From NCBI GenBank assembly GCA_012225525.1, contig GCA_012225525.1_3923.1: a stretch of DNA of 64,000 nt, one strand, 5' to 3'. Made by a program: the position numbers and the translations under genes. Origin of the DNA: a phage. The stretch's first letter is position 1; every line of letters starts with the position of its first letter. The notes beneath the pieces were generated by a model. The model was given only the letters and a program-made list of their open reading frames with translations. It had not been told where the DNA came from and did no database searches. Of this stretch, positions 5,579 through 49,792 are shown piece after piece.

Positions 5579-7813
5579 ATGATTAAGACAATTAAAAAAT
5601 CAAACGGTACAGTAGTAAGCTTTGACCCAGAAAGACTGAATAAATGGGCATCATGGGCAGATAAGCGTGGAATTATCTGGTCAGAAGTCACTATGGAAGC
5701 TATGAAACGTGTCTATGAAGGTTGCACCACAAAAGAGATGCACCAAGCCATGATTGATGTTTGTGTTGATAAACAAACTCAAGAGTACTCAGATATGGCT
5801 GGACGACTGCTTTTGGGTATTATCTACAAAGAAGCCTTTGGAGGCTTTACTAAGGTTCCTACGCTGGTTACCTTCGTTAAAAATATGGAGAGAGCAGGAC
5901 TTTGGGAGAAGATGGACTATTCTCAGGAAGAGCTTGAATACCTGCAAGGGTACATTGTGCACTCAAAAGATATCTCTTATGGTTATGCAGTCCTGAAACA
6001 GTTCAGAGACAAGTATGGTATCCGTGATATTAAAACGGGAAGACTTTTTGAGTCACCACAATTTATGTTTATGGGTATGGCTATGAAAGCCTTTGAGAAG
6101 CAACCAAAGCACCGTAGACTACAAGATGTTATCAAGCTGTACACTTACCTATCTGACCTGAAGATTAACGCTCCTACTCCTTACCTGAATGGTTTAAGAG
6201 CCACTAAATCAGGTTATGCGTCATGCTGTTTGATTAAGGCGAATGATACCGCTGAATCTCTCGGTATTGCTGCAAAGGTTGCTTATGATATGACTACAAA
6301 GCAAGCTGGTATCGGGATGCTGATGGAGACTCGCACTATTGGTGATGGTATCCGTCAAAATACTATTGAACACATGGGTAAGCTACCTTATTACAAGCTT
6401 GTACGTTCATCTGTAGAGGCAAACAAACAGAAGAGTCGTGGTGGTTCAGCTAACAACTTCTATACTGCTCTAGACCCGCAGATTGAAGATTTACTGCGTT
6501 TGAAGCACCCTACAACGGTTCCTTCGAAACGTATTAACGAGATGGACTACTCATTTGGTACAAATGATTATTTCTGGCAGTGTGTTCAATATGATACAGA
6601 CTGGTTGCTATTCTCTTACAAGGATGCACCAAAACTCTATGACATGTTCTACACAGCATCTGCTGATGAGTTTGCTATGGCAGTTGGTCACGCAGTCCAT
6701 TCAGGTGTTAAGCACAGACGAGTAAAGGCTCGTGAAATTGCTAAACTGTTTATCCAGCAGCGTTATGCAACAGGCCGTGTGTACCCATTCTTCACGAATA
6801 ATGCAAACACACATACGCCATTTAAAGAACCTTTGAAGATGTCAAATCTTTGTATGGAAATTGTGTTGCCAGTGTACGGCTTTGAGAAAGAGACAGACCT
6901 TTACAGAGATGATGCTGTGAAAGAGGATGGTGAGGTAGCTCTTTGCTTCCTAGCTAGTTTGGTTGCAGGGAGAATTTCAGAAGATGAATACGCTGACGTT
7001 GCTTATTATGCTCTTGCAATGGTTGACTCCGTTATTGACCTTATGGATTATCCGTATCCGTCGATGCGTAACCATGTTCAGAAGCGTCGTTCTGTTGGTA
7101 TTGGCCTTACAAATGTGGCTCATTACCTTGCAAAAAACTACGTGAACTACTCTTCAAGAGCAGGTAAGACGAAGCTTCATGAGCTTGCTGAAATGCACTC
7201 TTACTACTTACACGAAGCTTCTTTAAGACTTGCTAAAGAACGTGGTGTACCTGAGTATATGCAGTTCACTAAGTATCCTGAAGGCTGGGTTCCTCCAAAG
7301 ACAGCTAACAAGAAGATTGATGAGAAGCATGATGCAAAACTTCGTTATGATTGGGATGACTTAGCACAACGTATTAAAGAAAATGGTGGAATCCGTAACT
7401 CTGTATTAGAGGCTTACATGCCTAATGAGAGTTCTTCACTGGCAACTAATACGACAAACGGCTTGTACCCAATTCGTGACTTTATTTTAACTAAAAAGTC
7501 TGCAACTGGTAACGTACTGTTTATTGTTCCAGATTACGAAGAGTTGAAGTATGTCTATGAAATTGCTTGGGATATTGACACCTTTGACCTGATTGATTGT
7601 TATGCAATTGTTCAAAAGTTCACTGGTCAAGCTATCTCTTCAGATTTCTATGTTGACTACGCAAAAGCTAAGAAGGTATCATTGGCTCAAGCTTTGAAGT
7701 ACATGATTTATGCTAACTCAGTAGGTATGAAAACTATGTACTACCTTAACAGTCGCATTGGTGTAGGTAAATCTGCACTGCAAGATGCTTATTGCGAGGG
7801 TTGTGGTGTTTAG
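5579..7813 (+). CDS. nrdA: ribonucleoside-diphosphate reductase large subunit (class I RNR alpha)
   Basis: 744 aa; ATP-cone-like N-terminus; followed by NrdB and redoxin genes. Confidence 0.9.
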   Translation: MIKTIKKSNGTVVSFDPERLNKWASWADKRGIIWSEVTMEAMKRVYEGCTTKEMHQAMIDVCVDKQTQEYSDMAGRLLLGIIYKEAFGGFTKVPTLVTFVKNMERAGLWEKMDYSQEELEYLQGYIVHSKDISYGYAVLKQFRDKYGIRDIKTGRLFESPQFMFMGMAMKAFEKQPKHRRLQDVIKLYTYLSDLKINAPTPYLNGLRATKSGYASCCLIKANDTAESLGIAAKVAYDMTTKQAGIGMLMETRTIGDGIRQNTIEHMGKLPYYKLVRSSVEANKQKSRGGSANNFYTALDPQIEDLLRLKHPTTVPSKRINEMDYSFGTNDYFWQCVQYDTDWLLFSYKDAPKLYDMFYTASADEFAMAVGHAVHSGVKHRRVKAREIAKLFIQQRYATGRVYPFFTNNANTHTPFKEPLKMSNLCMEIVLPVYGFEKETDLYRDDAVKEDGEVALCFLASLVAGRISEDEYADVAYYALAMVDSVIDLMDYPYPSMRNHVQKRRSVGIGLTNVAHYLAKNYVNYSSRAGKTKLHELAEMHSYYLHEASLRLAKERGVPEYMQFTKYPEGWVPPKTANKKIDEKHDAKLRYDWDDLAQRIKENGGIRNSVLEAYMPNESSSLATNTTNGLYPIRDFILTKKSATGNVLFIVPDYEELKYVYEIAWDIDTFDLIDCYAIVQKFTGQAISSDFYVDYAKAKKVSLAQALKYMIYANSVGMKTMYYLNSRIGVGKSALQDAYCEGCGV

Positions 7814-25113: not shown

Positions 25114-25899
25114 ATGGGTATTGTAAAAATAATCAATGGTGATATCTTTGCCGCATTTGATAAAGGTAAGTTTGACATCATCGGTCACGGTTGCAACTGT
25201 ATGAATTTAATGGGTGCAGGTATCGCTGACAAGATTTCTAAACTTTACCCAAAAGCATATGAGACCGATACAGAAGTTTATCTATATGCAGGTGGTATAG
25301 GACACAAACCCTGTGAAAATTTACTGGGTAATTTCTCTGTAGCACGTTTAAAACAAGGTCGTATAGCTAACCTTTACACTCAGCTTAAGACTGGTAAAGA
25401 TGCCCGATACAGTGCTTTAGAGTCATCTTTGAAACAGCTTAACAGATACTGTGAAGTTAATCAGTTGAAGAAAGTTGGTTTACCTATGATTGGTGCAGGT
25501 ATTGGTGGGCTGGACCCTCAAGCTGTCATAGTTATCATCAATCAGGTGATGAAGAGTGTAGATGTTTATCTGTATGTCTATGAAGGAGAGATGTACCACA
25601 AGTTACGCTCAGGTTGGAAGAACTACTGTGAACCAGAATACTTTGCAGGTGTAGCAGTGTTCACAGATAACGCAGTTACCCTCTTCAGACGAAGAAAAGG
25701 TAAGATACATCAAAGTAACCCTCCGGTTGAAAAGATGTCTCTGAGTAACGCTCTAGTTACCCACCTGTCGAAGAGCAATCACAGGATTGCAGTAACATTT
25801 GGCAGTGATGCAGATACTTATATCTATGCAAGAACTGATGAGGATATCGAGACAGTTTTCTCTTCACCAGAAGTTACCTTCTTAGACGCAAAGAACTAA
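25114..25899 (+). CDS. macro-domain-like protein (ADP-ribose binding/processing)
   Basis: INGDIF...FDIIGHGCNCMNLMGAGIADKI and GLPMIGAGIGGLDP resemble macro domain N-terminal and Gly-rich motifs. Confidence 0.5.
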   Translation: MGIVKIINGDIFAAFDKGKFDIIGHGCNCMNLMGAGIADKISKLYPKAYETDTEVYLYAGGIGHKPCENLLGNFSVARLKQGRIANLYTQLKTGKDARYSALESSLKQLNRYCEVNQLKKVGLPMIGAGIGGLDPQAVIVIINQVMKSVDVYLYVYEGEMYHKLRSGWKNYCEPEYFAGVAVFTDNAVTLFRRRKGKIHQSNPPVEKMSLSNALVTHLSKSNHRIAVTFGSDADTYIYARTDEDIETVFSSPEVTFLDAKN

Positions 25900-25967
25900 G
25901 AAACTCTGTAGAATATTCACAATAGACTAAGCCTTTCTTATCTGGTAAATTTTTCAGGTAAGGAGGG

Positions 25968-26153
25968 CTTTTTCATTTCAGGATTGTGCAGGTAGAGTTC
26001 TGTAGAGAAATCTGTAGAGAGAATTTTGAACTCCAAAGAGAAAATTCATTTTCAAACTGTGCAGGTAATCTCCAAAGAGCTTTTTCATTTTCAAAACGTG
26101 CAGACCCCGCTCAGGTCGGGCAAGAAAAATCATTTTAGAATTGTGCAGGTAGG
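25968..26153 (+). repeat. four imperfect direct repeats of about 26 bp (TTTCATTTTCAAA-TGTGCAGGTA)
   Basis: Copies at about 25968, 26040, 26078, 26125; also duplicated TCTGTAGAGA and CTCCAAAGAG. Confidence 0.7.
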
Positions 26154-26154
26154 T

Positions 26155-26205
26155 TTTTATAGAGAGCCAGACCAACCCCTCTCCCCCTCTTACTCCCCCT
26201 CTCCC
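26155..26205 (+). repeat. polypyrimidine C-rich tract
   Basis: CCAGACCAACCCCTCTCCCCCTCTTACTCCCCCTCTCCCC. Confidence 0.6.
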
Positions 26206-26327
26206 CAAAAGTCAAGAGAAAAATTTGTAGTGGATTGAAAAATAATTCTTGATTTGTGTTCTGTTTTGTGGTAGTCGCGTGCGCCCGTTTCATTACAGTT
26301 TTGCTAAAAATATTTTTAAAAATTTTC

Positions 26328-26356
26328 TTGACTCTTTGAACGGGGTTATCTAATAT
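26328..26356 (+). promoter_or_regulatory. sigma70-like promoter
   Basis: TTGACT-17 bp-TAATAT upstream of first small gene. Confidence 0.55.
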
Positions 26357-26408
26357 TTGCATCAGACGGGGCGACAAGCTCAACAACCTTAAACTAGGAG
26401 ATTCAAAA

Positions 26409-26789
26409 ATGGCATATCGTGCACCTAAATTCATCAACAAAGACAACTTTCGCAACGCACTGGAGAAGTCACTTGATGAAAATTTTAAAGGTAACATTAT
26501 CGTTGTTCACGCATTCAATTTTAAGTATGATGTAAACGGGAATAGAATCAACCATTACACGGCAACCATGTCAGATGGTACACTTTCAAGTGAAAAAGCC
26601 GTACTAAATGCACTGGCAGGACGTGGAAAGGTATTAGTAAGATGTGATAAGAGACGTTATCAGGGCGGCGCATATGGTTATGATGATGCTGTTTACCATC
26701 TTGAAAATATGGGCTATCAAGTAGAAAAAGCTGGAGCATCACAAATCATCGGCAGCGATGGTTATGTAACAATCTTCAAAATTAACTGA
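26409..26789 (+). CDS. small hypothetical protein (array gene 1)
   Basis: Preceded by TTAAACTAGGAGATTCAAAAATG leader. Confidence 0.5.
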   Translation: MAYRAPKFINKDNFRNALEKSLDENFKGNIIVVHAFNFKYDVNGNRINHYTATMSDGTLSSEKAVLNALAGRGKVLVRCDKRRYQGGAYGYDDAVYHLENMGYQVEKAGASQIIGSDGYVTIFKIN

Positions 26790-26877
26790 TAAAGTACTTT
26801 ACAAGGGGCTTATAGTTCGATAAAGTAAGCCCCAGATAAAGAGCTTTACCACTAAATCCTAAATTGGAGATTCAAAA
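26786..26877 (+). repeat. cassette type B copy 1
   Basis: CTGATAAAGTACTTTACAAGGGGCTTATAGTTCGATAAAGTAAGCCCCAGATAAAGAGCTTTACCACTAAATCC...GGAGATTCAAAAATG. Confidence 0.75.
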
Positions 26878-27168
26878 ATGGCTACTATCAAAAACGTTGT
26901 AATTCCTGTAAAAACTCGTGATGACGCTCGCATCATGGCGAAAAAGTTAGGCGGGAAAGTGGTTGACAACGGAAAACAATCTGCTGTAAGATGGGGTGTG
27001 AAGGCTGATAAACAGTTGAAGTTAAAAAATTCACCAATAAATCTTTTTACATGTGTAAACACTATCGGAAAGACAAATGTATACACGAAAAAGGCATATA
27101 TTAGACGCGTAGCCTTAACATCTCCAATTCGTACAATGAGAGGTTATGCAAAGCTGAAAATTAACTGA
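26878..27168 (+). CDS. small hypothetical protein (array gene 2)
   Basis: Follows cassette B. Confidence 0.5.
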   Translation: MATIKNVVIPVKTRDDARIMAKKLGGKVVDNGKQSAVRWGVKADKQLKLKNSPINLFTCVNTIGKTNVYTKKAYIRRVALTSPIRTMRGYAKLKIN

Positions 27169-27256
27169 TAAAGTACTTTACAAGGGGCTTAAAAGTTGGT
27201 ATCTTAAGCCCCAGATAAAGAGCTTTACCACTCAATCCTAAACTGGAGATTCAAAA
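27166..27256 (+). repeat. cassette type B copy 2
   Basis: Same architecture, hairpin GGGGCTTAA...TTAAGCCCC. Confidence 0.75.
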
Positions 27257-27553
27257 ATGAAATTACCAAATAAAGTTCGTGAAAATCTAAGCAAATTACT
27301 CAACAAAATTGATTTCATTGAAACATCAAGAAATAGCCATGATGTTATGGAATGGTTACACGGCAAAATAAAAGGTCGTCGTGTAGTGATTTGCTTATGG
27401 AATAGTTGCAGGGAGTATAAAAAACCTGTATTGCAAGTTAATATCTATGATGATACTCTTAAAAGTCCTGTCAAATCTAAAAGCGATTTACTAGATTCTT
27501 ATGAGATAACTGTAAATGGCAAAGTGTCACGTAAAGAGGAAGCACCATGTTAA
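27257..27553 (+). CDS. small hypothetical protein (array gene 3)
   Basis: Follows cassette B. Confidence 0.5.
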   Translation: MKLPNKVRENLSKLLNKIDFIETSRNSHDVMEWLHGKIKGRRVVICLWNSCREYKKPVLQVNIYDDTLKSPVKSKSDLLDSYEITVNGKVSRKEEAPC

Positions 27554-27879
27554 TGACTGGTATCACTGCAATCATTGCCATTTTCGCGCTCTATAAGGCA
27601 TATAAAGCCTATAATCTAGCAAATAAGGCAATTACACAACAGGTTAGCAATAACCTTGTAATGAGCTTTCTAGAGCGGTTGAGCGATGAACAATTAAAGC
27701 GGTTAGAAATGAGCTTCAGATTCAGGGCGAGAACTTATCAAATCAGCGACATTTTCAAAGATGATTTTCAATTAGTCGATGATTATAATTCTCTGATAAA
27801 TGCTTTAAATATTAGTGACTTAAAAGACTATCATACTGTAATTGTTCAAGAGTTGAGCAAACGAAAACAAAACTGTTGA
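27547..27879 (+). CDS. small membrane-associated hypothetical protein (array gene 4)
   Basis: N-terminal hydrophobic segment; overlaps previous stop. Confidence 0.4.
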   Translation: MLMTGITAIIAIFALYKAYKAYNLANKAITQQVSNNLVMSFLERLSDEQLKRLEMSFRFRARTYQISDIFKDDFQLVDDYNSLINALNISDLKDYHTVIVQELSKRKQNC

Positions 27880-27969
27880 CACTGGTTTTTAGATAGATTA
27901 AATTACACATCAACGGGGAGGGAATGACCTTCCCCACTAAATAAAGTCCTTAAACTAGGAGATTCTAAA
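27876..27969 (+). repeat. cassette type A copy 1 (promoter TTGACA-17-TAAATT, hairpin 27915..27935, RBS)
   Basis: TTGACACTGGTTTTTAGATAGATTAAATT...GGGGAGGGAATGACCTTCCCC...TTAAACTAGGAGATTCTAAAATG. Confidence 0.75.
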
Positions 27970-28242
27970 ATGTATACTACTAACAATGGCCGCACTTTGA
28001 ACGTCACACTACGTCACTATGTAGATGGTGTCATGCACTTTGAAGATTTACAAGCTGAACAACATATCTTAGATTGGCAAGTCGCAGGACTCCAAAAAAC
28101 TGCTACGGGATACGGTAAAAAGATTCCAACTAGTTGGAAAGTTCACTATGAAGGACGTTTGCGCAGAATTTATCAAGATGTGCAAAGCAATAGTGCATCG
28201 AGTTACATTATAGTAAAAGGTAAAAAACTGCATTTAGTGTAA
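27970..28242 (+). CDS. small hypothetical protein (array gene 5)
   Basis: Follows cassette A. Confidence 0.5.
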   Translation: MYTTNNGRTLNVTLRHYVDGVMHFEDLQAEQHILDWQVAGLQKTATGYGKKIPTSWKVHYEGRLRRIYQDVQSNSASSYIIVKGKKLHLV

Positions 28243-28325
28243 AGTACTTTACAGGGGGTTATCAAGCTGATAAGATAGCCCCAGATAAAGAGCTTTACCA
28301 CTAATCCTAAATTGGAGATTCAAAA
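28243..28325 (+). repeat. cassette type B copy 3
   Basis: AAAGTACTTTACAGGGGGTTATCAAGCTGATAAGATAGCCCCAGATAAAGAGCTTTACCACT. Confidence 0.7.
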
Positions 28326-28730
28326 ATGGCTATCAATAATCGTGAATTATCAATCTTAAAAGCACGTTTGACCGTTAATCGAATCAATGTTATCACGTCA
28401 TCAGCACCGGATGAAACATTGCACAACATTATCGGAAAGATTCAAAGCGTTATCTTAGACGTTGAAAACGTAAAAAGTTCATTGGCTGACGTTGCAGCAG
28501 GTATCACGCTAGACGGTGCGCAATATGAAATGGCTGACATGTTAGGCAAATCAAAGGTAATGAATAAAGAACTTGATTTAAAAATGTTTCGATTTGCCGT
28601 GAAAGTATGGCTATCCGTCGAGTATGACGCTAATTTTGCAATCGCTGATTTCTTCGCCACTTGGTTGCAACGTAATTTGACAAATCATGATTTTCGTGAC
28701 ATCTGCGACGCAATTTATGCAGAACTCTAA
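28326..28730 (+). CDS. small hypothetical protein (array gene 6)
   Basis: Follows cassette B. Confidence 0.5.
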   Translation: MAINNRELSILKARLTVNRINVITSSAPDETLHNIIGKIQSVILDVENVKSSLADVAAGITLDGAQYEMADMLGKSKVMNKELDLKMFRFAVKVWLSVEYDANFAIADFFATWLQRNLTNHDFRDICDAIYAEL

Positions 28731-28738
28731 AAATTTTA

Positions 28739-28831
28739 TTGACACTGATTTTTAGATAGATTAAATTACACATCAACGGGGAGGGAATGACCTTCCCCAC
28801 TAAGTAAAGTCCTTAAACTAGGAGATTCAAA
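28739..28831 (+). repeat. cassette type A copy 2 (promoter TTGACA-17-TAAATT, hairpin 28778..28798, RBS)
   Basis: Near-identical to copy 1. Confidence 0.75.
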
Positions 28832-29029
28832 ATGGCTATTATCAACGGTTTAACCATTGAAACCACGCACATCAAAGACATTAAAGTTGGTGATGTAGTT
28901 CTTTCCCACGGCGTAGAAAAAACAGTCACTGCAAAGGATATCAAAGATGATTCTTTCATGGGTAGAACTCTCTTCGGTGATTCTTATTGCTTAGGTTATC
29001 TTGCAGTTTTAAAAGTTGTCAAAAATTAA
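28832..29029 (+). CDS. small hypothetical protein (array gene 7)
   Basis: Follows cassette A. Confidence 0.5.
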   Translation: MAIINGLTIETTHIKDIKVGDVVLSHGVEKTVTAKDIKDDSFMGRTLFGDSYCLGYLAVLKVVKN

Positions 29030-29122
29030 CTGATAAAGTACTTTACAAGGGGCTTATAGTTCGATAAAGTAAGCCCCAGATAAAGAGCTTTACCACTAAA
29101 TCCTTAAACTAGGAGATTCAAA
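29030..29122 (+). repeat. cassette type B copy 4
   Basis: Near-identical to copy 1. Confidence 0.75.
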
Positions 29123-29665
29123 ATGAAATGCTTTCACGGTACTACTCAAGAAAACTTTATCAACCTGATTAATAACGGTGATAAACCATCAGGTGTATGG
29201 AATTGTTCGGATATGGACGGCAATTTTTACGTGTACCCAGAAAATAAACTCTATGGTGATGATGAGGAAGAGATAGCATCGGAAGGTATCCAGCAAGCTC
29301 TAGGAAATGCCACTATCACGGCAGCTTTTCAGATGAAAACTCAAAATATTGTTATCTTAGAACTTGACATTCCAGAGGATGAGCTAAATGATGATTATTC
29401 TTGTGATAACATGTCAAATATAGCAAGCTTTACAGAGTACTTTGATGTAAATTGGATTAAAAAGGTCTATACAACAGAGTTCAACGCTATGTATTCACCT
29501 TTTTGTCTCCCTTCACTGGATAACCCAAATTTAAATTATCTTGATGAAACATTGGAGCTACTTGCTAAAAGTATCCAACAATCCGACAGTATTCAGGTTT
29601 TTTGTGACATCATGGATACACTGACAGAAAACATTGTAGAGAGTGATTTAAAGGTCTTTTTCTAA
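29123..29665 (+). CDS. hypothetical protein (array gene 8, 180 aa)
   Basis: Follows cassette B. Confidence 0.5.
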   Translation: MKCFHGTTQENFINLINNGDKPSGVWNCSDMDGNFYVYPENKLYGDDEEEIASEGIQQALGNATITAAFQMKTQNIVILELDIPEDELNDDYSCDNMSNIASFTEYFDVNWIKKVYTTEFNAMYSPFCLPSLDNPNLNYLDETLELLAKSIQQSDSIQVFCDIMDTLTENIVESDLKVFF

Positions 29666-29731
29666 AAACCTATACATTCACCTTATAAACACTGATTAAC
29701 CCCTTACAGGGGCTTTTAGAGGGCTTAAATC

Positions 29732-29965
29732 ATGCTTACAACCATTTATCTCATCCTTTCCATTTGTAACGGCCATTCATGTGACTTTAAAGGGCTTGAA
29801 GAGTTTACAGGAAGTAAAGAAAATGCTATTCAAGTTTGCCAGATAGCAAGACAAGACTACCCCGCCAGTGATGATATACAATGTTACTTTAAGACAGAAG
29901 ATGACGAAGGAATCTATTTCGACAGTGTCGATGGTCAATATGAAATTATCATTGAAAAAGACTAG
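29732..29965 (+). CDS. small hypothetical protein (array gene 9)
   Basis: Preceded by hairpin CCCCTTACAGGGG; no A/B cassette. Confidence 0.4.
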   Translation: MLTTIYLILSICNGHSCDFKGLEEFTGSKENAIQVCQIARQDYPASDDIQCYFKTEDDEGIYFDSVDGQYEIIIEKD

Positions 29966-30058
29966 ACAAGCCTGATAAAAGTCTGTAAATTATCAATCAA
30001 CGGGGAGGGAATGACCTTCCCCACTAAGTAAAGTCCTTAAACTAGGAGATTCCAAAAA
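29966..30058 (+). repeat. cassette type A copy 3 (hairpin 30002..30022)
   Basis: ATCAACGGGGAGGGAATGACCTTCCCCACTAAGTAAAGTCCTTAAACTAGGAGATTCC. Confidence 0.7.
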
Positions 30059-30307
30059 ATGTATACTAAAACTCAACTAAAAAACATGGTTAGCAATGGC
30101 TTAATGGATGAAGTCTATAAAGAGTGTAGACGCTACGGGGAAATTAAGGATAAGACTAGTTATGAGTATACCCACACAATAGACTTTAAAACCAATGAGA
30201 AGAGGACTGACCTTGTTACTGTAGTAGTGATTGAGTATAAACGAATTATTTGGACCTTTGAGCTAGTAAAAGGTGAGTGCACAGAGATAGAATATAAAGA
30301 CGCTTAA
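30059..30307 (+). CDS. small hypothetical protein (array gene 10)
   Basis: Follows cassette A. Confidence 0.5.
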   Translation: MYTKTQLKNMVSNGLMDEVYKECRRYGEIKDKTSYEYTHTIDFKTNEKRTDLVTVVVIEYKRIIWTFELVKGECTEIEYKDA

Positions 30308-30392
30308 AGTACTTTACATGGGGCTTATTAGTCTGTATAGTAAGCCCCAGATAAAGAGCTTTACCACTCAATCCTAAACTGGAGATTCTAAA
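30308..30392 (+). repeat. cassette type B copy 5
   Basis: AAGTACTTTACATGGGGCTTATTAGTCTGTATAGTAAGCCCCAGATAAAGAGCTTTACCACT. Confidence 0.7.
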
Positions 30393-30734
30393 ATGGCTTA
30401 TGTAACCGTAATTACCGATAAAGCTGGCTCATCTTGGTCAACTCAAGTAAGTGATAAGATGTCACCTATGCAGTGCCTAAAATACTTTGAACAGTGGAAC
30501 AAAGGCGAGGGTGTAAGCCCCTTTCAAGTGATGCAAATCATCCATACAGATAACGAAGGGAATAAAACGACCTTGAACAGTGAATACTACGCAAGCCGTT
30601 TTGAAACGAGAAGTAAAACAATGAAGCTTTTACGTGAATCCGGTTATGCACATATTGCCGCTTTAATCTGGGATGACCTGCTAAAAAGTCAGCGTATCAG
30701 CTATGTAAAACCTGAAAAAATATTCATCAGTTAA
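30393..30734 (+). CDS. small hypothetical protein (array gene 11)
   Basis: Follows cassette B. Confidence 0.5.
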   Translation: MAYVTVITDKAGSSWSTQVSDKMSPMQCLKYFEQWNKGEGVSPFQVMQIIHTDNEGNKTTLNSEYYASRFETRSKTMKLLRESGYAHIAALIWDDLLKSQRISYVKPEKIFIS

Positions 30735-30862
30735 TCAATAACTTATAAAAAACTTTTAAAAAAGTGTTGACAATACCCATTGACATTGGTAACTTTGTTC
30801 GAGGGGGTTATCTAAAAGGGATTCACTTAATAGATTCTTTATAGATAAACTTAAAAAATTGC

Positions 30863-30955
30863 TTGCAAAGGCAAATCAAAACAAGTATAGTACTAATCAA
30901 CGGGGAGGGAATGACCTTCCCCACTAAGTAAAGTCCTTAAACTAGGAGATTCAAA
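30863..30955 (+). repeat. cassette type A copy 4 (promoter TTGCAA-17-TATAGT, hairpin 30902..30922)
   Basis: Additional TTGACA-like elements at about 30769-30790. Confidence 0.7.
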
Positions 30956-31486
30956 ATGAACAAGTTTCAAGCTATCAACTACATTCGCTCATCTAACGTT
31001 ATGACTAAACCCGTTAAAGATACCTTCGAATTTCGTTGCAACGGTGTACACTTTGCAACTATCACTAAATCAGAAAACGGGGCTTATTATATACATCGTC
31101 GTAATGTTTCTACTGTTGTAGTATCTCACTTTATGCAAGCTGTAGCAGAACTGTTACCGCTATTCTTAGGTATTTACTTAGATGAGTGTAAAAACGTTCG
31201 CAACCACGTTAAAGACCTTTTAAATGGTTATAAAATGGCTTATGAACGTTCTATCAAGAATCTTAACAAGTTCTATAAAGCCCCTGAAAACACCGTATCA
31301 ATAGCTTATGATGTAAGCGGTGAAATGGTCAACCTCTCCAATGTAGAACAAATTGGCCTTTATGATTTACGTCCTAGCGGTTATTCTAAGACTCTCGGTG
31401 AAGGCTTATCCTTCAATATCAAGAACTTAGAAAAAACTTTAAAAGATATTGAAAAAGATATTGACGAGACAATCAAAAGTCTGTAA
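30956..31486 (+). CDS. hypothetical protein (array gene 12, 176 aa)
   Basis: Follows cassette A. Confidence 0.5.
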   Translation: MNKFQAINYIRSSNVMTKPVKDTFEFRCNGVHFATITKSENGAYYIHRRNVSTVVVSHFMQAVAELLPLFLGIYLDECKNVRNHVKDLLNGYKMAYERSIKNLNKFYKAPENTVSIAYDVSGEMVNLSNVEQIGLYDLRPSGYSKTLGEGLSFNIKNLEKTLKDIEKDIDETIKSL

Positions 31487-31553
31487 ATTGTCAATCAACG
31501 GGGAGGGATTAACCTTCCCACTAAGTAAAGTCCTTAAACTAGGAGATTCAAAA
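31487..31553 (+). repeat. cassette type A copy 5 (variant hairpin 31499..31518)
   Basis: GGGGAGGGATTAACCTTCCC variant then TTAAACTAGGAGATTCAAAAATG. Confidence 0.7.
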
Positions 31554-31817
31554 ATGGAAAACGTAGAATTAACCACACTTTTACAAATTGCAACCGACAA
31601 AGAAGATGTAGCATTATTCCACCGTATCGAAAGCGATTTGTTCAATGGTGAAATCATTAAAGAATCTTACGAAGTTGTCGGATTCAAAGATGGTAAAGCA
31701 TTTGGCTTTTTTGACCTCGACAAAAGCAAAGCGGTTACAATGTACGATGTTCTATCTTGTGAAATTCTGACAAAATACAACGAAAAAAGGCTTGCAACCT
31801 ACGCCAATATGCAGTAA
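31554..31817 (+). CDS. small hypothetical protein (array gene 13)
   Basis: ATG 31554 directly after cassette RBS; track ORF 31449..31817 over-extended upstream. Confidence 0.45.
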   Translation: MENVELTTLLQIATDKEDVALFHRIESDLFNGEIIKESYEVVGFKDGKAFGFFDLDKSKAVTMYDVLSCEILTKYNEKRLATYANMQ

Positions 31818-31884
31818 ATTACTAATCAACGGGGAGGGAATGACCTTCCCACTAAACAAAGTCCTAAACTGGAGAATCTAAATT
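31818..31884 (+). repeat. cassette type A copy 6 (hairpin 31831..31850)
   Basis: ATCAACGGGGAGGGAATGACCTTCCCACTAAACAAAGTCCTAAACTGGAGAATC. Confidence 0.7.
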
Positions 31885-32133
31885 ATGTCAACTATCCGCG
31901 TAACTGTTAATGCTTATGGCTGCCACCAACTTGATGCAAAATTCGATATCGGTGGAACAGATAACACCTTTGACCTTATCAAAATGCTGATTCAGCAGGT
32001 GATACCAGATTATAACCCTACTGATGACTTCTGGAAAGATGCCGTAAAAGAAGCCATAAACGAGGAATCTCACTACCATTATTGGGGTGACTTGATTATC
32101 TCTCTGTACTACAGCAAACAAGGTTACAACTAA
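31885..32133 (+). CDS. small hypothetical protein (array gene 14)
   Basis: Follows cassette A. Confidence 0.5.
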   Translation: MSTIRVTVNAYGCHQLDAKFDIGGTDNTFDLIKMLIQQVIPDYNPTDDFWKDAVKEAINEESHYHYWGDLIISLYYSKQGYN

Positions 32134-32143
32134 TCGACGCAAC

Positions 32144-32196
32144 GGGGCTAAATAGCCCCAGATACCTGAAAAGCTCCTTCTCATAGGGGCTTTTTT
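32144..32196 (+). terminator. terminator region ending the rightward small-gene array
   Basis: Hairpin GGGGCTAAATAGCCCC, then GGGGCTTTTTT. Confidence 0.5.
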
Positions 32197-32199
32197 ACG

Positions 32200-33700
32200 T
32201 CTATAAAGAGACTCTATACAATCCCTTTCCTTTCCTTCCTAGAATCTATCCCGTACCTTAAAAGCAATAACTCTATAGGTTATTCTATAGCCCCTTATCA
32301 AATCAACTTAAATAAAAGCCAATAACCCCAGAAAGGGGATGGCCCATTAAAACGCTCTATAAAGCTCTATAACAGCCTTATCAACCTAACTTAAGCAATC
32401 ATATTAACCCACTCTAAAAAGCCCTTTATAGAGCTTCCCAGAGCCTTAAAAGAATCTTATAAGGGTGTAAGTTTATAGGCTGGCTAGTATCTTGTGAATA
32501 ACTAAACAATCCCCTTGATAGTCACTAAAAAGCATGTTATAGGGGGTATAAAGTTACTTCAAAGTAACGTAAAAAAGGCTATAAAGTTACGTAAATGCTA
32601 GCCCCCTTAACATTTTCTTAACAATTTCTTAACAATCCCTACATAGTTATGCTTGTTAGCCCCTTGTTAAATCTCTGTTAAGACCACGTAAAAGCCTTGT
32701 AAGAGTCTTTGACATAGCCTTAAAAGCTCCTGTAAAGCCCTATAAAGAGGTGTCTGTATAGTTGGGGTGTAATTACTAGGAAGAGACTTAAAAGAGCTTA
32801 CAAGGAGCTATAGAGAGCTTTTAAGAGGTATGTTTAAGAGTTCACTAAGAAAGGAAGGGAACGATAAGAAAAGAGATAGTGACCATGTTAATAGCTTGTT
32901 AAAAAGATTAAACACTTGTTAGGAACTTGTTAATTATCTTAATTGGTATTGTTACCAATCCCTACAAAATAACTCTTTAAAATTAACTTGTTAGCTCTTG
33001 TTAGTCATCTGTTAAGCCTCTGTAAAGACTATTCAGCACTTGTTAGAAAACTGTTAAGCCCTTGTTAGTTCTGTTAAGAAACTGTTAAGACCTTTGAAGA
33101 GATGTTAAGAGCTTGAGAGAGTTGTTAAGAGATTGTTAAGGATATTTTAAAATTTTGCAAAGTACTTGTAAGGGAGCTGTTAAGGGCTACCAAGCAGATA
33201 TACATCTTCTACAGATATTTTTCAGTCCCTTCAAAGACCCTAAAAAATGACTTGATAGTCCTATTTTATAAAAATTTTAAAATTCTGAATAATTACCTAG
33301 ACAGTCTTTTAAAAATACAGGTAGAAACAGGCTTATAAGATACCTTGTTAGTACCGTGTTAGACCTTGTGAGATAAGGTCTGTAAAGATATTCCTGTTAA
33401 GTTTGTTAAAACAGTCTATATAGAGGCTTAGTAGTGCCTAGTGAACACCTATAGAGGGTAACATAGCTAACCTAGAGATTAAGAGGTGTATAGGAGCTTC
33501 TAAGAGGGTGTAGAGAGATGGTTAAGGTGATTGTATAGGTTGTTAAGAAGGCTTGTTAGAAGAGTGTTTAGAAGGGCTATACAGAGGGGCTATTAAGACC
33601 ACTAGATAGATACTAAGATACTATATAGTACTATATAACTATATAGAGAGTAAGATTAAGAAGGTTGTTAAGAAGGGTAGATATTTTATTCACATATGAT
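32200..33700. repeat. ORF-free, motif-dense non-coding region (about 1.5 kb)
   Basis: No ORF of 60 aa or more on either strand; dozens of short motifs (CTTGTTAG, CTGTTAAG, TTGTTAAGA, CTATAAAG, TTAAAAG, TATAGAG). Confidence 0.8.
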
Positions 33701-44295: not shown

Positions 44296-44373
44296 GTTCC
44301 AGTAGACAAAATGGTAAAGTCACCACTCTTTCAAAGTGGATATCTGAGGGTTCAAATCCCTTCTGGAACGCCA
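44296..44373 (+). tRNA. tRNA-Glu (anticodon TTC)
   Basis: Acceptor GTTCCAG/CTGGAAC; anticodon loop CTTTCAA. Confidence 0.7.
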
Positions 44374-44463
44374 GTTTTGACAGAAGACCAATTACAGCAA
44401 ACTTAATCTACTCATCTGAAAGTTAATCGGACAAAGAAGATATTTGGTCTGGTCATTAAGAAT

Positions 44464-44540
44464 TGCGGGTATAGAGAAAGGGCGTCTCACATGTCTCATT
44501 AGCATGGTATCGGCAGGTTCGACTCCTGCACCCGCCTCCA
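44464..44540 (+). tRNA. tRNA-like element, anticodon arm unresolved
   Basis: Perfect T-arm GCAGG-TTCGACT-CCTGC and CCA end; internal GTCTCA duplication. Confidence 0.3.
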
Positions 44541-44623
44541 AATTTACAGAAGACCGTTTACAGCAATATTTATTAAATTTTTAGCGGAAAAATTGAAAGA
44601 TACGGTCTGGTAATACTAAACAT

Positions 44624-44700
44624 GGTTAGGAAGCACATAAGGTATGTGCGGTCGCCTGTTAAGCGAATGGCACAGGGTTCGAATCCCTGACTAACCGCCA
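44624..44700 (+). tRNA. tRNA-Asn (anticodon GTT)
   Basis: Anticodon loop CTGTTAA; T-arm CAGGG-TTCGAAT-CCCTG. Confidence 0.7.
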
Positions 44701-44769
44701 AATTTAGGAGAGAAGCGATTGCTCACCGATTTGTAAGGTGCAAGTCCTTAGCCTGAATAGAAATCAAAT

Positions 44770-44857
44770 GTGTCGTTATCCCGTAGATGGTAGCGGTGGG
44801 GACTGTAAATCCCTTGTCATTGAGACTCGGTAGGTTCGACTCCTACACGGCACACCA
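44770..44857 (+). tRNA. tRNA-Tyr (anticodon GTA), long variable arm
   Basis: Anticodon loop CTGTAAA; 88 nt. Confidence 0.7.
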
Positions 44858-44863
44858 AATAAA

Positions 44864-44941
44864 GGTTATGTAGTTTAATCTGGTTAAAATACTCCCCTGT
44901 CACGGGAGATGATGAGGGTTCAAATCCCTTCATAACCGCCA
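44864..44941 (+). tRNA. tRNA-Asp (anticodon GTC)
   Basis: Acceptor GGTTATG/CATAACC; anticodon stem-loop CTCCC-CTGTCAC-GGGAG. Confidence 0.75.
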
Positions 44942-45370
44942 ATTTTGAGAGGGCTATTTAGCCCCTCCCTTAAAGAGTTCTTACGAGTATTCTTTAAAGG
45001 AGCAGAAGACCAAATACAGCAAGAATGTATGAAATTTCAAGCCAATTCAATTTTGAAAATTTAAAACTTGGTCTGGCTCAACAAATTTACAGAAGACCGT
45101 TTACAGCAAAACTTAAACAATCTATTTCTCCGGTAAAGAAAAGGCGAAGGTTCGATTCCTTCACTCGGCAGATGTCGAGTTGGTGTAATGGTAGCACTTA
45201 AGATGATAAACAACGGTCTGGTAATTATCTTTGTAGATAAGTTATTAAGCTTACCTGTGAGTATGCGACCACAAAGGGTGAAAGGGTAAATTCTAGATTT
45301 AAACCCAAAAAGGCACATCGCTACAGACCTTAAGCAAGTCTGGGTAGCTTATCTACAAAGATAATTTAAT

Positions 45371-49591: not shown

Positions 49592-49792
49592 ATGAGCGAG
49601 ACCGTTTATAAAGAACTTTATGAAGCTAATAAAAAGCTAGAATTTATGCAGAATACTATCATGGCAATTGCAGACAGATTGTCTGTAGCAACAGGTATTG
49701 ATATTAAAGAAGCATCTATGGATGCACTTCTTGATGCTGTTGATGCAAAGTTCGAAGTTAAGAAAGAAGAGACTGCTACAGACTCTGAATAA
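49592..49792 (+). CDS. small protein upstream of terminase (possible small terminase subunit or DNA-binding partner)
   Basis: 66 aa; position only. Confidence 0.35.
   Translation: MSETVYKELYEANKKLEFMQNTIMAIADRLSVATGIDIKEASMDALLDAVDAKFEVKKEETATDSE

Follow-up and report, generated by a model that had tools for sequence, protein, structure and literature searches.

Promoter-early stem-loop (PeSL) cassettes are known from the T4-type phages RB49/phi1, PST/T4 and nt-1/KVP40 (Arbiol et al. 2010, PMC2839356; Comeau et al. 2014, PMC4122927). Like the repeats described below, they recur in the intergenic spaces of a plastic region made up of small non-essential ORFans, they run from a stop codon through an AT-rich stretch, sigma-70 -35/-10 hexamers, a GGGG...CCCC stem-loop with G-T pairs and a Shine-Dalgarno sequence to an ATG, and they form the boundaries of indels and replacements between close relatives. 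In the Felix O1 group, the GenBank record of coliphage wV8 (EU877232) already annotates repeats of this kind as DR_1-DR_9, and the Felix O1 paper (PMC3185647, 2010) lists two of them, of 57 bp and 39 bp. These correspond to the core of our type B and to the promoter half of our type A, respectively. Both records treat them as direct repeats only, with some hairpins given as minus-strand terminators, and without a promoter, RNA-structure or recombination interpretation.

Two more distant systems share part of this organization. The early genes of phage T7 are separated by RNase III processing hairpins of about 20 interrupted base pairs with an internal loop. The abstract on the archaeal halovirus HF2 (PMC8707807) describes two classes of short intergenic repeats, whose AT-rich motifs are promoters of the downstream genes; these are likewise promoter-bearing repeats of a virus genome, but the promoters are of the archaeal type, and the abstract mentions neither a conserved stem-loop nor an RBS leader and shows no role in modular exchange.

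Organization of the array

The DNA analysed here (the window) is a 64-kb stretch of a Felixounavirus with about 97% identity to wV8. The type A hairpin GGGGAGGGAATGACCTTCCCC was found in six copies (at 27915, 28778, 30002, 30902, 31500 and 31831), the type B core AGATAAAGAGCTTTACCACT in five (at 26834, 27213, 28283, 29078 and 30349) and a shared RBS leader in 12 in the window, against 0.00, 0.02 and 0.07 matches, respectively, expected from dinucleotide shuffles. An earlier note on this DNA had claimed an array of small genes served by two cassette families, and both families are thus real. The cassettes (six type A, five type B and a degenerate first copy) all lie on the + strand between 26.3 and 31.9 kb, and each extends over 85-100 nt, beginning at the stop codon of a small gene and ending at the ATG of its downstream neighbour. 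The whole-window repeat search gave no further large repeat family except tRNA-derived ones. There are 14 small + strand ORFs (65-180 aa), and 12 of them have a cassette directly upstream, in agreement with the claim that most are so preceded; the exceptions are the ORFs at 27547 and 29732.

The array begins with a promoter and leader at 26328..26408 (TTGACT-17-TAATAT, the degenerate hairpin GGGGCGACAAGCTC and the leader CCTTAAACTAGGAGATTCAAAAATG), at the position where wV8 has the canonical type A hairpin. The first gene (26409..26789, 126 aa, phrog_4495) has the promoter and the leader, but its hairpin is degenerate. Type B cassette 1 (26787..26877) has a -35 TTTACA at 26798, a -10 TAAAGT ending at 26826, an inner hairpin at 26805-26833 and an outer stem of 26790-26801 with 26837-26848, followed by the RBS leader and an ORF of 96 aa (26878..27168, phrog_5089). 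Type B cassette 2 (27166..27256; TTTACA at 27177, a 17-nt spacer and TATCTT preceded by TG) serves an ORF of 98 aa (27257..27553, phrog_4401), with which the next ORF (27547..27879, 110 aa, phrog_4375) overlaps by 7 nt; the overlap and the lack of a cassette suggest that the latter is probably translationally coupled. Type A cassette 1 (27876..27969; TTGACA-17-TAAATT, hairpin at 27915-27935, RBS leader), the -35 hexamer of which contains the TGA stop of the upstream ORF, precedes an ORF of 90 aa (27970..28242, phrog_3436). Type B cassette 3 (28240..28325; TTTACA at 28248, a 17-nt spacer, TAAGAT), upstream of an ORF of 134 aa (28326..28730, phrog_4327), is of the GGGGGTTATC/GATAGCCCC stem subtype, and wV8 has a different loop subtype at this position. 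Type A cassette 2 (28728..28831; TTGACA at 28739, a 17-nt spacer, TAAATT, hairpin at 28778-28798) is followed by an ORF of 65 aa (28832..29029, phrog_3623). Type B cassette 4 (29027..29122) is a chimera of the type B core and the leader variant CCTTAAACTAGGAGATTC, the one used by most type A cassettes in the window, and serves an ORF of 180 aa (29123..29665, phrog_3303).

In the second half, a terminator-like hairpin, CCCCTTACAGGGG followed by CTTTTAG (29700..29719), precedes an ORF of 77 aa (29732..29965, phrog_4640), which has no cassette and its own GAGGG RBS. Type A cassette 3 (29963..30058; TAGACA-17-TAAATT, hairpin at 30002-30022), with the upstream TAG stop within its -35 hexamer, leads to an ORF of 82 aa (30059..30307, phrog_23636), and type B cassette 5 (30305..30392; TTTACA at 30313, a 17-nt spacer, TATAGT) to one of 113 aa (30393..30734, phrog_4318). 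A 128-nt spacer (30735-30862) containing further TTGACA motifs then separates the latter from type A cassette 4 (30863..30955; TTGCAA-17-TATAGT, hairpin at 30902-30922) and its ORF of 176 aa (30956..31486, phrog_4725). In type A cassette 5 (31461..31553; TTGACG-17-TAAATT, a variant hairpin at about 31500-31519 with a 7-bp stem), the -35 hexamer and the spacer lie within the 3' end of the upstream ORF; the following ORF of 87 aa (31554..31817, phrog_7022) starts with the ATG at 31554. Type A cassette 6 (31792..31884; TTGCAA-17-TAAATT, hairpin at 31831-31850) likewise has its promoter within the 3' end of the upstream ORF, carries the leader variant typical of type B, and serves the final gene (31885..32133, 82 aa, phrog_4559). 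At the end of the array (32144..32197, + strand) are a type B-like remnant hairpin, GGGGCTAAATAGCCCC, without -35/-10 hexamers, AGATA and the intrinsic terminator AGCTCCT...AGGGGCTTTTTT.

All 14 array proteins belong to PHROGs of unknown function, representing 14 unrelated families, and none of the 14 has a Pfam domain, so that the proposal of a host-takeover or anti-defence island found no support. The product of 29123..29665, which from its identical array position and length would correspond to bas63_0107 of Bas63, gave weak ADP-ribosyltransferase-like fold matches (model pLDDT 68.5), and it is the only array protein with such a match.

The suggested likeness to the T4-type promoter-stem-loop cassettes was borne out, since the architecture is that of the published PeSL definition (PMC2839356). 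PeSL stem-loops located between -35 and -10 or overlapping -10 resemble type B, and those downstream of -10 resemble type A. However, the cassettes of the Ounavirinae have no detectable sequence similarity to those of the T4-type phages; they comprise just two tightly conserved families, kept in four genera; type B adds an AU-rich outer stem, giving a covariation-supported hairpin of about 20 bp; and transcripts from the type A promoter would contain the type A hairpin. For the PeSLs of RB49/phi1, experiments demonstrated the activity of both terminator and promoter as well as mini-circles, whereas the present cassettes are known from their sequence.

Predicted promoter signals

A mechanical promoter scan found 9-10/12 matches with 17-nt spacing in all five type B and in five of the six type A cassettes. 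Among 61 distinct type B copies, CTTTACA, TA at -12/-11 and T at -7 are invariant and the other loop positions vary; TTTACA-17-TAnnnT is present in 60 of the 61 copies, from four genera, and in 109 of 118 in a larger set. The -10 position is inside the hairpin loop. In the RNA model neither the CA of -35 nor the TA of -10 takes part in base pairs, and pairing therefore cannot account for their invariance. The earlier description gave a promoter for type A alone; the predicted sigma-70-like promoter of type B corrects it and is a new interpretation, absent from the earlier repeat annotations. In 33 type A copies, T.G of -35, TA...T of -10 and the 17-nt spacing are invariant, and the spacer sequences fall into at least six unrelated classes. 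The 25 nt upstream of -35 are 64-88% AT, compared with 61% window-wide.

By RT-PCR in Felix O1, array ORFs 16, 20, 21 and 22 were maximal at 5 min (PMC3185647, Table 3). Some cassette-served ORFs of Felix O1 (17, 19 and 23) peak at 25 min, not at 5 min (PMC3185647), which counts against reading them as early modules. For these phages, the literature searched yielded neither mapped transcript ends (5' or 3') nor reporter or recombination assays.

RNA hairpins and covariation

In type B, the GATAAAG...CTTTAC motifs pair with each other and, together with the GGGG...CCCC stem, form an interrupted sense-strand hairpin of about 20 bp, with a predicted folding energy of -25 to -32 kcal/mol (z-score -2.8 to -6.1). 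Paired cells amounted to 91.2%, against 34-54% when the partners were slid, and the covariation score of 0.105 (0.058 for shuffles) was reached by none of 500 shuffles. In an anchored alignment of 118 copies, 97.5% of cells were paired, with compensatory switches of GC/UA (86/19), GC/UA (108/8) and UA/AU (86/32), and the ratio of G·U to A·C (216:7) points to the sense strand. Note that few positions covary and that many copies share ancestry or have been homogenised by gene conversion, which leaves only a small number of independent events. The motifs had been proposed to be a triple regulator-binding site; they are better explained by an outer RNA stem in which each motif supplies one arm. 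Changes from G-C to U-A are compensated, the motifs stay complementary even where each loses its own palindromy, and the 'third' copy is only the -10 region of one loop subtype. The 3' arm, AGATAAAGAG, is more nearly invariant than pairing alone requires and may have an extra sequence-specific role such as protein binding.

The type A hairpin (8 bp, starting 10 nt after the -10 hexamer; leaders of -16 to -19 kcal/mol) is almost invariant and shows little covariation. No U-tract follows the cassette hairpins and the terminator scan called none of them, so that a role in termination, as shown for the RB49 PeSL stem-loop, is no more than a possibility here, and an unlikely one for type A, whose own transcript would include the hairpin.

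Distribution and recombination

Matches to type A came from 247 phage records and matches to type B from 289; every one of these phages belongs to the Ounavirinae, and the copy number is about five per record. Both types are present in Felixounavirus, Mooglevirus and Suspvirus, and type B additionally in Erwinia and Cronobacter Kolesnikviruses. Across genera, the identity of the type B core is 0.83-0.90 versus 0.64-0.71 for the flanking genes, and against Erwinia phage M7 it is 0.76-0.80 versus 0.57, so that the cassettes exceed their flanking genes in conservation.

When the window was compared with 10 relatives, cassettes, with a share of about 21% of the region, contained 44 of the 56 edges of indel or mosaic breakpoints (79%), and the comparison with wV8 gave a mosaic of 0% and 6-24% blocks with cassettes as boundaries. 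Similarity is higher between cassettes at different positions of one genome (0.862) than between cassettes that share a position in different genera (0.832). Cassette subtypes swap between positions, with loop subtypes differing at matching sites even in the near-identical pair of window and wV8, and chimeric cassettes are present, for example a type B core with the leader usual for type A. Type B cassette 2 is of the type that in relatives precedes another gene family (family 10) and is here fused to a family 0 ORF, which we take as the footprint of a cassette-to-cassette deletion. The phrog_23636 ORF (30059..30307) is found only in the window and wV8 among 13 genomes compared, and it makes up, with the type B cassette after it, an insertion when compared with UAB_Phi87, finno and Felix O1. 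One IMG/VR contig carries a 430-bp tandem duplication of a cassette-gene unit. Gene order is mostly collinear in Felixounavirus, Mooglevirus and Suspvirus, where the array changes by indels, allele replacement and cassette conversion, and differs only in the Erwinia phages. The expectation that ORFs are swapped between cassettes was therefore confirmed in part with 12 relatives: gain, loss and replacement are cassette-bounded, but the collinearity across three genera indicates that the cassettes do not cause free shuffling. Similarly, the reported alternation of the two types holds in the middle of this genome only and is not conserved in the relatives.

Proposed function and alternative explanations

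We consider it likely that the two families represent, in the Felix O1 group (Ounavirinae), composite regulatory cassettes of the PeSL type. The conservation, the base-pairing covariation and the breakpoint and mosaic patterns were observed in silico; promoter activity, transcript start sites and the roles of the hairpins are what we infer from them. Each cassette would combine a host sigma-70-type promoter, a G/C-rich sense-strand RNA stem-loop and a conserved Shine-Dalgarno leader, making each small ORF an insulated early module with autonomous expression. In type A, the distance of 10 nt from the -10 hexamer would place the hairpin about 3 nt from the 5' end of the transcript, where it may act as a 5' stabiliser. 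In type B, the promoter would be nested in the hairpin, with -35 in the outer stem and internal loop and -10 in the apical loop, and its transcripts would start just 3' of the inner stem; the complete hairpin would form only in read-through RNA from upstream, probably serving the upstream cistron as a 3' stabiliser, an attenuator or a processing site. Being near-identical direct repeats, the cassettes would also be patches of homology, and recombination between them could delete, insert, duplicate or replace single gene modules and homogenise the cassettes themselves.

It seems improbable that type B has no promoter and works only as an intercistronic RNA element. In that case it might stabilise 3' ends, attenuate transcription or be processed in the manner of RNase III sites; the early mRNA would be polycistronic and driven from the type A and first promoters, and the -35/-10 resemblance would come about as a by-product of an AT-rich hairpin. 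The conserved extended hairpin with its compensatory changes and G·U bias would suit such an element, the hairpin needs read-through RNA, which must then exist and matter, and some genomes have long runs of genes with solely type B cassettes. Its roughly 20 bp and 3x3 internal loop also resemble the interrupted hairpins between the cistrons of T7 early mRNAs, and cleavage, hypothetical for the cassettes, would give the upstream mRNA a hairpin at its 3' end; T7 sites, however, contain no promoter and are not near-identical repeats. This explanation leaves unaccounted for the invariance of the unpaired -35 CA and the TA at -12/-11 at a fixed spacing amid varying neighbours, as well as the string AAAAGTCTGTAAA common to the type B loop/-10 and the type A promoter spacers, and in Suspvirus and Mooglevirus, which have mostly type B, one distant promoter must drive more than 5 kb.

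We give still less credence to the GATAAAG(N2)CTTTAC near-palindromes being DNA operators, which would bracket the type B promoter so that a dimeric phage (or host) regulator switches the early genes off or on. Although the cassettes hold 10 copies of TAAAGNNCTTTA and the rest of the 64 kb a single one (0.21 expected), two motif copies flank -35 and the predicted start site, and the 3' copy is almost invariant in four genera, the AAATTG../..GAGATTT variants lose their own two-fold symmetry and keep their mutual complementarity, as expected of a stem, and the G·U excess is a single-strand signature. Moreover, the motif starts are 47 bp apart (about 4.5 helical turns), which would put the sites on opposite faces of the DNA, the 'third' motif is restricted to one loop subtype, and no regulator was identified. 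Very unlikely, finally, are repeats with no regulatory role, either selfish or mobile intergenic (MITE-/REP-like) elements or what is left of a recent tandem duplication of genes. Shortness, inverted-repeat cores and the clustering of many copies in a single region would be typical of them, and the duplicated cassette-gene unit would fit; yet orientation and stop-to-ATG register are constant, every copy ends in a Shine-Dalgarno sequence, conservation in four genera exceeds that of the adjacent coding DNA, and the 14 unrelated PHROG families show that the flanked genes are not duplicates. Copies outside the array are lacking in the window and, by copy number, in related genomes, and transposase and target-site duplications are absent.

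Conclusions

Relative to the earlier annotation, the PeSL-type reading appears to add the type B promoter, the pairing of its motifs, the stronger conservation of cassettes than of flanking genes, the cassette-centred breakpoints and the swapping of subtypes, and for type A the combination of variable spacers with invariant -35/-10 hexamer positions, followed by a hairpin that would lie about 3 nt into the transcript. On this reading, gene gain, loss and exchange among related phages take place at the cassettes, in much the way described for the T4-type phages.

Arrangement of the array and its cassettes

The 5.9-kb array region is about 97% identical to that of coliphage wV8 and of several O157 typing phages, and matches to it occur in 258 phage records, of which nearly all belong to Felix O1-like myoviruses (Ounavirinae). 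The region contains 14 ORFs of 65-180 amino acids, all on the + strand. Upstream lies a macro-domain 'phosphatase' gene (25114-25899), separated from the array by a strong terminator (25929-25970); another terminator is located inside the array (29700-29719), and a third marks its end at about 32169-32197 (32.17-32.20 kb), beyond which a 1.6-kb non-coding stretch is followed by genes on the opposite strand. Counts over the whole window gave six type A hairpins, five type B cores and 12 copies of the shared RBS leader. Every cassette copy is on the + strand and confined to 26.3-31.9 kb, where essentially none is expected by chance, bearing out the earlier description of an array with two repeated cassette families (six copies of type A and five of type B). 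A whole-window repeat search found no comparable repeat family elsewhere in the window except tRNA-derived repeats. A cassette precedes 12 of the 14 ORFs; the exceptions are ORF 27547, which overlaps its upstream neighbour, and ORF 29732, which comes after a terminator-like hairpin.

As repeats, the cassettes are already on record and hence not new: the wV8 GenBank record annotates them as DR_1 to DR_9, and in the genome paper on Felix O1, 57-bp and 39-bp repeats appear in a list with no comment (PMC3185647). The text of the wV8 paper mentions neither repeats nor promoters, and the comparative Felixounavirus paper does not discuss the cassette repeats.

Other repeated motifs were noted in the window. 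At 25973-26210, in the 509-nt spacer before the array, a motif similar to TCATTTTCAAACTGTGCAG is repeated about four to five times, and the pyrimidine tract CCCCTCTCCCCCTCTTACTCCCCCTCTCCCC comes after it. The 1.6 kb at 32200-33700, between the + strand array and the minus-strand genes, has no convincing ORF and contains TGTTA(A/G) 26 times on the + strand versus three times on the minus strand, often as CTTGTTA(A/G). The GC skew changes sign near 34 kb, and the finno and nataliec records carry a repeat_regions annotation at the place matching 32200-33700; this stretch could be an origin or terminus, or a tract of repeated protein-binding sites. A tRNA gene cluster, here of 26 genes at 44.2-49.4 kb, is usual for Felix O1-like phages. 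Within it, at 44373-45115, a 34-nt motif (CAAATTTACAGAAGACCGTTTACAGCAA...) occurs three times, each directly 3' of tRNA genes, and could be a processing or promoter element.

The type A cassette

In the type A cassette, the -35 element, a 17-nt spacer and the -10 element (TAAATT or TATAGT) are followed by about 10 nt with an invariant CAAC at the end and by an 8-bp hairpin, of which the arms GGGGAGGG/CCTTCCCC include one G·U pair and the first base lies 10 nt past the -10. After the hairpin come ACTAAnTAAAG, the leader CCT(T)AAAC(T)(A/T)GGAGATTC and the ATG. The 33 distinct copies from 10 of the compared genomes have at least six unrelated classes of spacer, some of which overlap the upstream ORF at its 3' end, and in two copies the upstream stop codon falls within the -35 hexamer (TGA in TTGACA; TAG in TAGACA). 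The T.G of the -35 and the TA...T of the -10 are the same in all 33 copies, as is the 17-nt spacing; judged from the alignment, these positions are conserved in the way typical of a functional sigma-70 promoter.

The folding energy of the type A hairpin leaders is -16 to -19 kcal/mol. Since the hairpin begins 10 nt after the -10 and the usual start is 6-8 nt downstream, the predicted transcript would have about 2-4 unpaired nucleotides before the hairpin. Hairpins so near the 5' end shield E. coli mRNAs against 5'-end-dependent decay, and we infer that the type A hairpin may protect its mRNA in the same way. Because it would lie inside its own transcript, the type A hairpin is unlikely to be an efficient terminator.

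At the first cassette (window 26357-26390), GACGGGGCGACAAGCTCAACAA is found where wV8 has a canonical type A hairpin (about 1568-1590 of the wV8 locus, L001). The window and wV8 differ by 10% in the first array gene and not at all in the next cassette, with an overall identity of 97%; this looks like a recent module replacement.

The type B cassette: a predicted nested promoter and a predicted RNA hairpin

In the earlier note, the type B cassette was described without a promoter. A mechanical scan corrected this, since TTTACA-17-TAnnnT is present in all five copies in the window, and the 17-nt spacing holds for 12 of the 12 cassettes. The comparison of type B covered 61 distinct copies, drawn from 13 genomes in four genera (Felixounavirus, Mooglevirus, Suspvirus and Kolesnikvirus). 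CTTTACA is invariant among them, TAnnnT follows at exactly 17 nt in 60 copies and at 18 nt in the other, and the apical loop varies at all but three positions, -12/-11 (TA) and -7 (T). The predicted start is the A of AGATAAAGAG, just 3' of the inner stem of the hairpin described below, so transcripts from the type B promoter would be without the hairpin, which would form in read-through RNA only. The leader of the type B-initiated transcript folds no better than shuffled sequence.

In the predicted fold of the read-through RNA, two GATAAAG(N2)CTTTAC motifs pair mutually into an 11-bp AU-rich outer stem, which a 3x3 internal loop joins to the inner stem GGGGCTTA/TAAGCCCC; the stretch GGGGCTTA...TAAGCCCC covers the spacer and the -10. 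The whole-cassette fold has an energy of -25 to -32 kcal/mol and a z-score of -2.8 to -6.1. In the type B alignment, 91.2% of the cells were paired versus 34-54% with slid partners, and the covariation score was above all 500 shuffles. When the IMG/VR loci were included with anchored registration, 97.5% of the cells were paired in 118 distinct copies. The copies are interrelated and represent few independent covariation events; their compensatory switches were GC/UA (86/19) for the outer stem and, for the inner stem, both GC/UA (108/8) and UA/AU (86/32). G·U exceeds A·C by 216 to 7 in the type B stems, with four fixed positions giving most of the G·U cells. Because A·C is G·U seen on the other strand, this large excess argues that pairing is kept on the sense strand and points to RNA, rather than to a cruciform or a palindromic protein site, as the source of the pairing signal. 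The sense-strand pairing shows that the RNA hairpin matters, in whatever role. Selection on the type B RNA hairpin would imply that read-through transcription across the cassettes occurs and is important. The RNA model cannot account for the CA in the -35 or the TA in the -10, both unpaired, nor can the promoter model account for the complementarity of the stems; promoter and RNA-stem constraints therefore appear to share one 60-nt element, as far as alignments can tell.

Other functions for the repeated elements were considered. The earlier note had suggested that a 'triple' GATAAAG...CTTTAC could be the binding site of a phage regulator. However, the compensation between the motifs favours a stem, and their start-to-start spacing of 47 bp is out of phase, against an operator with cooperative in-phase sites. 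An extra TAAAGNNCTTTA site at 49609 is within an ORF and is a chance match. Some cassette hairpins are annotated as terminators on the minus strand in the wV8 and KhF3 records. The hairpins have no U-tract, the sequences next to them on the 3' side being ACTAAATAAAG in type A and AGATAAAGAG in type B, and a terminator scan called none of them on either strand, so we do not retain the intrinsic-terminator reading. In Rfam 15, searched with 25.5-33.5 kb, neither cassette had a match, the sole match with E<1 being a chance snoRNA within an ORF.

A more elaborate possibility, which we regard as rather improbable, is that type B is dual-coded, with a promoter and an RNA processing and insulation site in the same 60 nt. 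The read-through RNA would fold as the conserved hairpin, about 20 bp long and interrupted, and RNase III or a phage nuclease would cut its invariant internal loop (CAN opposite AGA). Cleavage would leave the upstream message with a protective 3' hairpin and create a 5' end (AGAUAAAGAG...) that is the same as the end produced by initiation from the nested promoter, giving one uniform monocistronic mRNA per gene irrespective of transcriptional origin. The near-invariant AGAUAAAGAGCUUUAC 5' end might then be a common recognition tag for a temporal regulator, a logic comparable to that of T4 RegB or RegA on early messages.

Distribution and conservation

Both cassettes were compared with 50,697 phage records by blastn (word size 11). 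Type A was found in 247 records and type B in 289, with about five copies each, or roughly 1,300 type A and 1,400 type B copies in all, and only in Ounavirinae barring a few odd or weak records; type B extends to the Kolesnikviruses of Erwinia and Cronobacter, where the RBS leader is different. The 60-nt type B core has an identity of 0.83-0.90 to those of Suspvirus and Mooglevirus, versus 0.64-0.71 for the coding DNA that the cassettes separate; the corresponding values for Erwinia phage M7 are 0.76-0.80 and 0.57. The IMG/VR loci were re-scanned with a gap wider than 24-27, as most copies need 28. True cassettes in IMG/VR are confined to Ounavirinae-like contigs of about 50-95 kb, and the other matches, inside coding sequence, were dismissed as chance. 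The cassette array is real and far beyond chance, and by the criterion of conservation the cassettes are judged to be functional.

GU169904.1, a 147-kb record named Staphylococcus phage SA1, has six type B cassettes at about 130 kb. Since the best of these is 99% identical to those of the window, the record appears to contain Felix O1-like sequence and may be chimeric or contaminated.

Gene exchange at the cassettes

Clustering of the ORFs from the 13 genomes into numbered families showed one basic order in Felixounavirus, Mooglevirus and Suspvirus (families 11-12-10-0-6-1-7-22/20-2-3-34-8-4-15-9). Departures from this order are single genes present or absent, and the order is rearranged in the Erwinia phages only. 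The idea that genes are swapped between cassettes in relatives is thus upheld for gain, loss and replacement bounded by cassettes, but not for free shuffling, which the collinear order in the three genera contradicts. For example, the window lacks family 10, and its family 0 ORF is joined there to the cassette subtype that in other genomes precedes family 10; the window and wV8 have an extra module consisting of ORF 30059 and a type B cassette; and in Felix O1 a loss between two cassettes has removed families 22, 2 and 3. In comparisons with ten relatives, 44 of 56 breakpoint edges are in cassettes and five more are within 9 nt of a gene end, while the cassettes make up about 21% of the array region, which is the share of breakpoints expected by length. 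The window and wV8 form a mosaic of identical blocks and blocks with 6-24% divergence, with borders at cassettes.

Cassette identity was 0.862 for different positions in the same genome, 0.832 for the same position in different genera and 0.825 when both differed, which on these alignments amounts to concerted evolution. The loop subtype before one gene differs already between the window and wV8, and which leader variant a cassette has is independent of its upstream half. One 90-kb IMG/VR contig (L026, IMGVR_UViG_2974556886_000001) has at 6435-7301 a perfect 430-bp tandem duplication of one cassette-gene unit (2.0 copies, 99% match). Its junction, ...GGAGAATCTAAAATG|CTTTACATGGGG..., fuses a start codon directly to the next type B cassette; the duplication is the product of either unequal crossing-over at cassettes or an assembly artefact.

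The small genes

All 14 array proteins belong to PHROGs of unknown function, and a Pfam search with the 14 ORFs gave nothing above threshold. The 180-aa ORF had no match in a PDB sequence search, and its homologues are restricted to the Felix O1-like phage group. Its product, a candidate for NAD-dependent ADP-ribosylation, has a conserved His5 (in an HGT motif) and Glu80. By RT-PCR in Felix O1, expression of array ORFs 16, 20, 21 and 22 peaked at 5 min, and that of ORFs 17, 19 and 23 peaked at 25 min (PMC3185647); this timing is unrelated to cassette type. The counterpart array in phage Bas63 is bas63_0098-0111, and this part of the Bas63 genome contains small genes with varying essentiality. 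The PhageMaP screen scored g107 as more essential when the host was strain S17-1. We take g107 to correspond to the 180-aa ORF of the window from its place in the array and its size (543 nt, 180 aa) only, and the screen gives a weak hint that one array gene acts in host takeover. The label 'anti-defence island' for the array is a conjecture.

Comparison with the PeSL cassettes of T4-type phages

The promoter-early stem-loop (PeSL) cassettes of T4-type phages consist of a stop codon, an AT-rich region, sigma-70 -35 and -10 elements, a GGGG...CCCC stem-loop with G-T pairs, a Shine-Dalgarno sequence and an ATG (PMC2839356). The stem-loop usually lies between the two promoter elements or covers the -10, and in some cases it is found downstream of the -10; PeSLs concentrate in hyperplastic regions and border indels between close relatives (PMC2839356; PMC4122927). 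The likeness to these elements proposed in the earlier note holds, since both cassette types share every PeSL feature that can be checked in silico. The window cassettes are small, repeated and intergenic and confined to a region of small ORFs of unknown function, where the presence or absence of genes varies among the 13 genomes. They have predicted sigma-70-like promoters preceded by 25 nt that are 64-88% AT. Their hairpins resemble those of PeSLs in the polyG/polyC arms, in the placement relative to the -10 and in the G·U pairs in both types. All of them end with (A/T)GGAGA, 7-10 nt and an ATG, and they flank indels and replacements between close relatives. Two further PeSL traits are the stem-loop serving as terminator or attenuator, for which the window hairpins show the sense-strand pairing signal but neither a U-tract nor a call by the terminator scan, and mini-circles formed when neighbouring cassettes recombine, at which the tandem duplication in L026 and the deletions from one cassette to another hint only indirectly. 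In contrast, blastn against the phage records detected no sequence similarity between the window cassettes and the T4-type elements, and the cassettes are therefore regarded as an analogue in a different subfamily rather than a homologue. In the searched literature, no paper connects PeSLs with Felix O1-like phages. The best reading of the array is that it consists of PeSL-type promoter/hairpin/RBS cassettes, which would express and modularise small early accessory genes.

In the unrelated myovirus Bas62 JohannJBalmer (Justusliebigvirus; MZ501084), more than 20 small hypothetical genes follow one another at 80100-87600, mostly separated by spacers of about 50-120 nt. From this run, cassette-type arrays may be common in large virulent coliphages.

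Significance

Felix O1-type phages are widely used for typing, biocontrol and therapy directed at Salmonella and E. coli; hardly any of their transcription programme has been mapped, and the temporal control of Felix O1 was described as unknown (PMC3185647). Rereading the 'direct repeats' as promoter/hairpin/RBS cassettes provides about 12 candidate early promoters per genome and would explain the gain, loss and exchange of single genes in the accessory array of Ounavirinae. The cassettes flag places to seek host-takeover or counter-defence genes, and in the engineering of Felix O1-type phages they could be used as natural landing pads and as portable expression units. The occurrence of the PeSL design outside the T4 group without sequence homology suggests a general way, possibly reached by convergence, for virulent phages to carry plug-and-play accessory genes.
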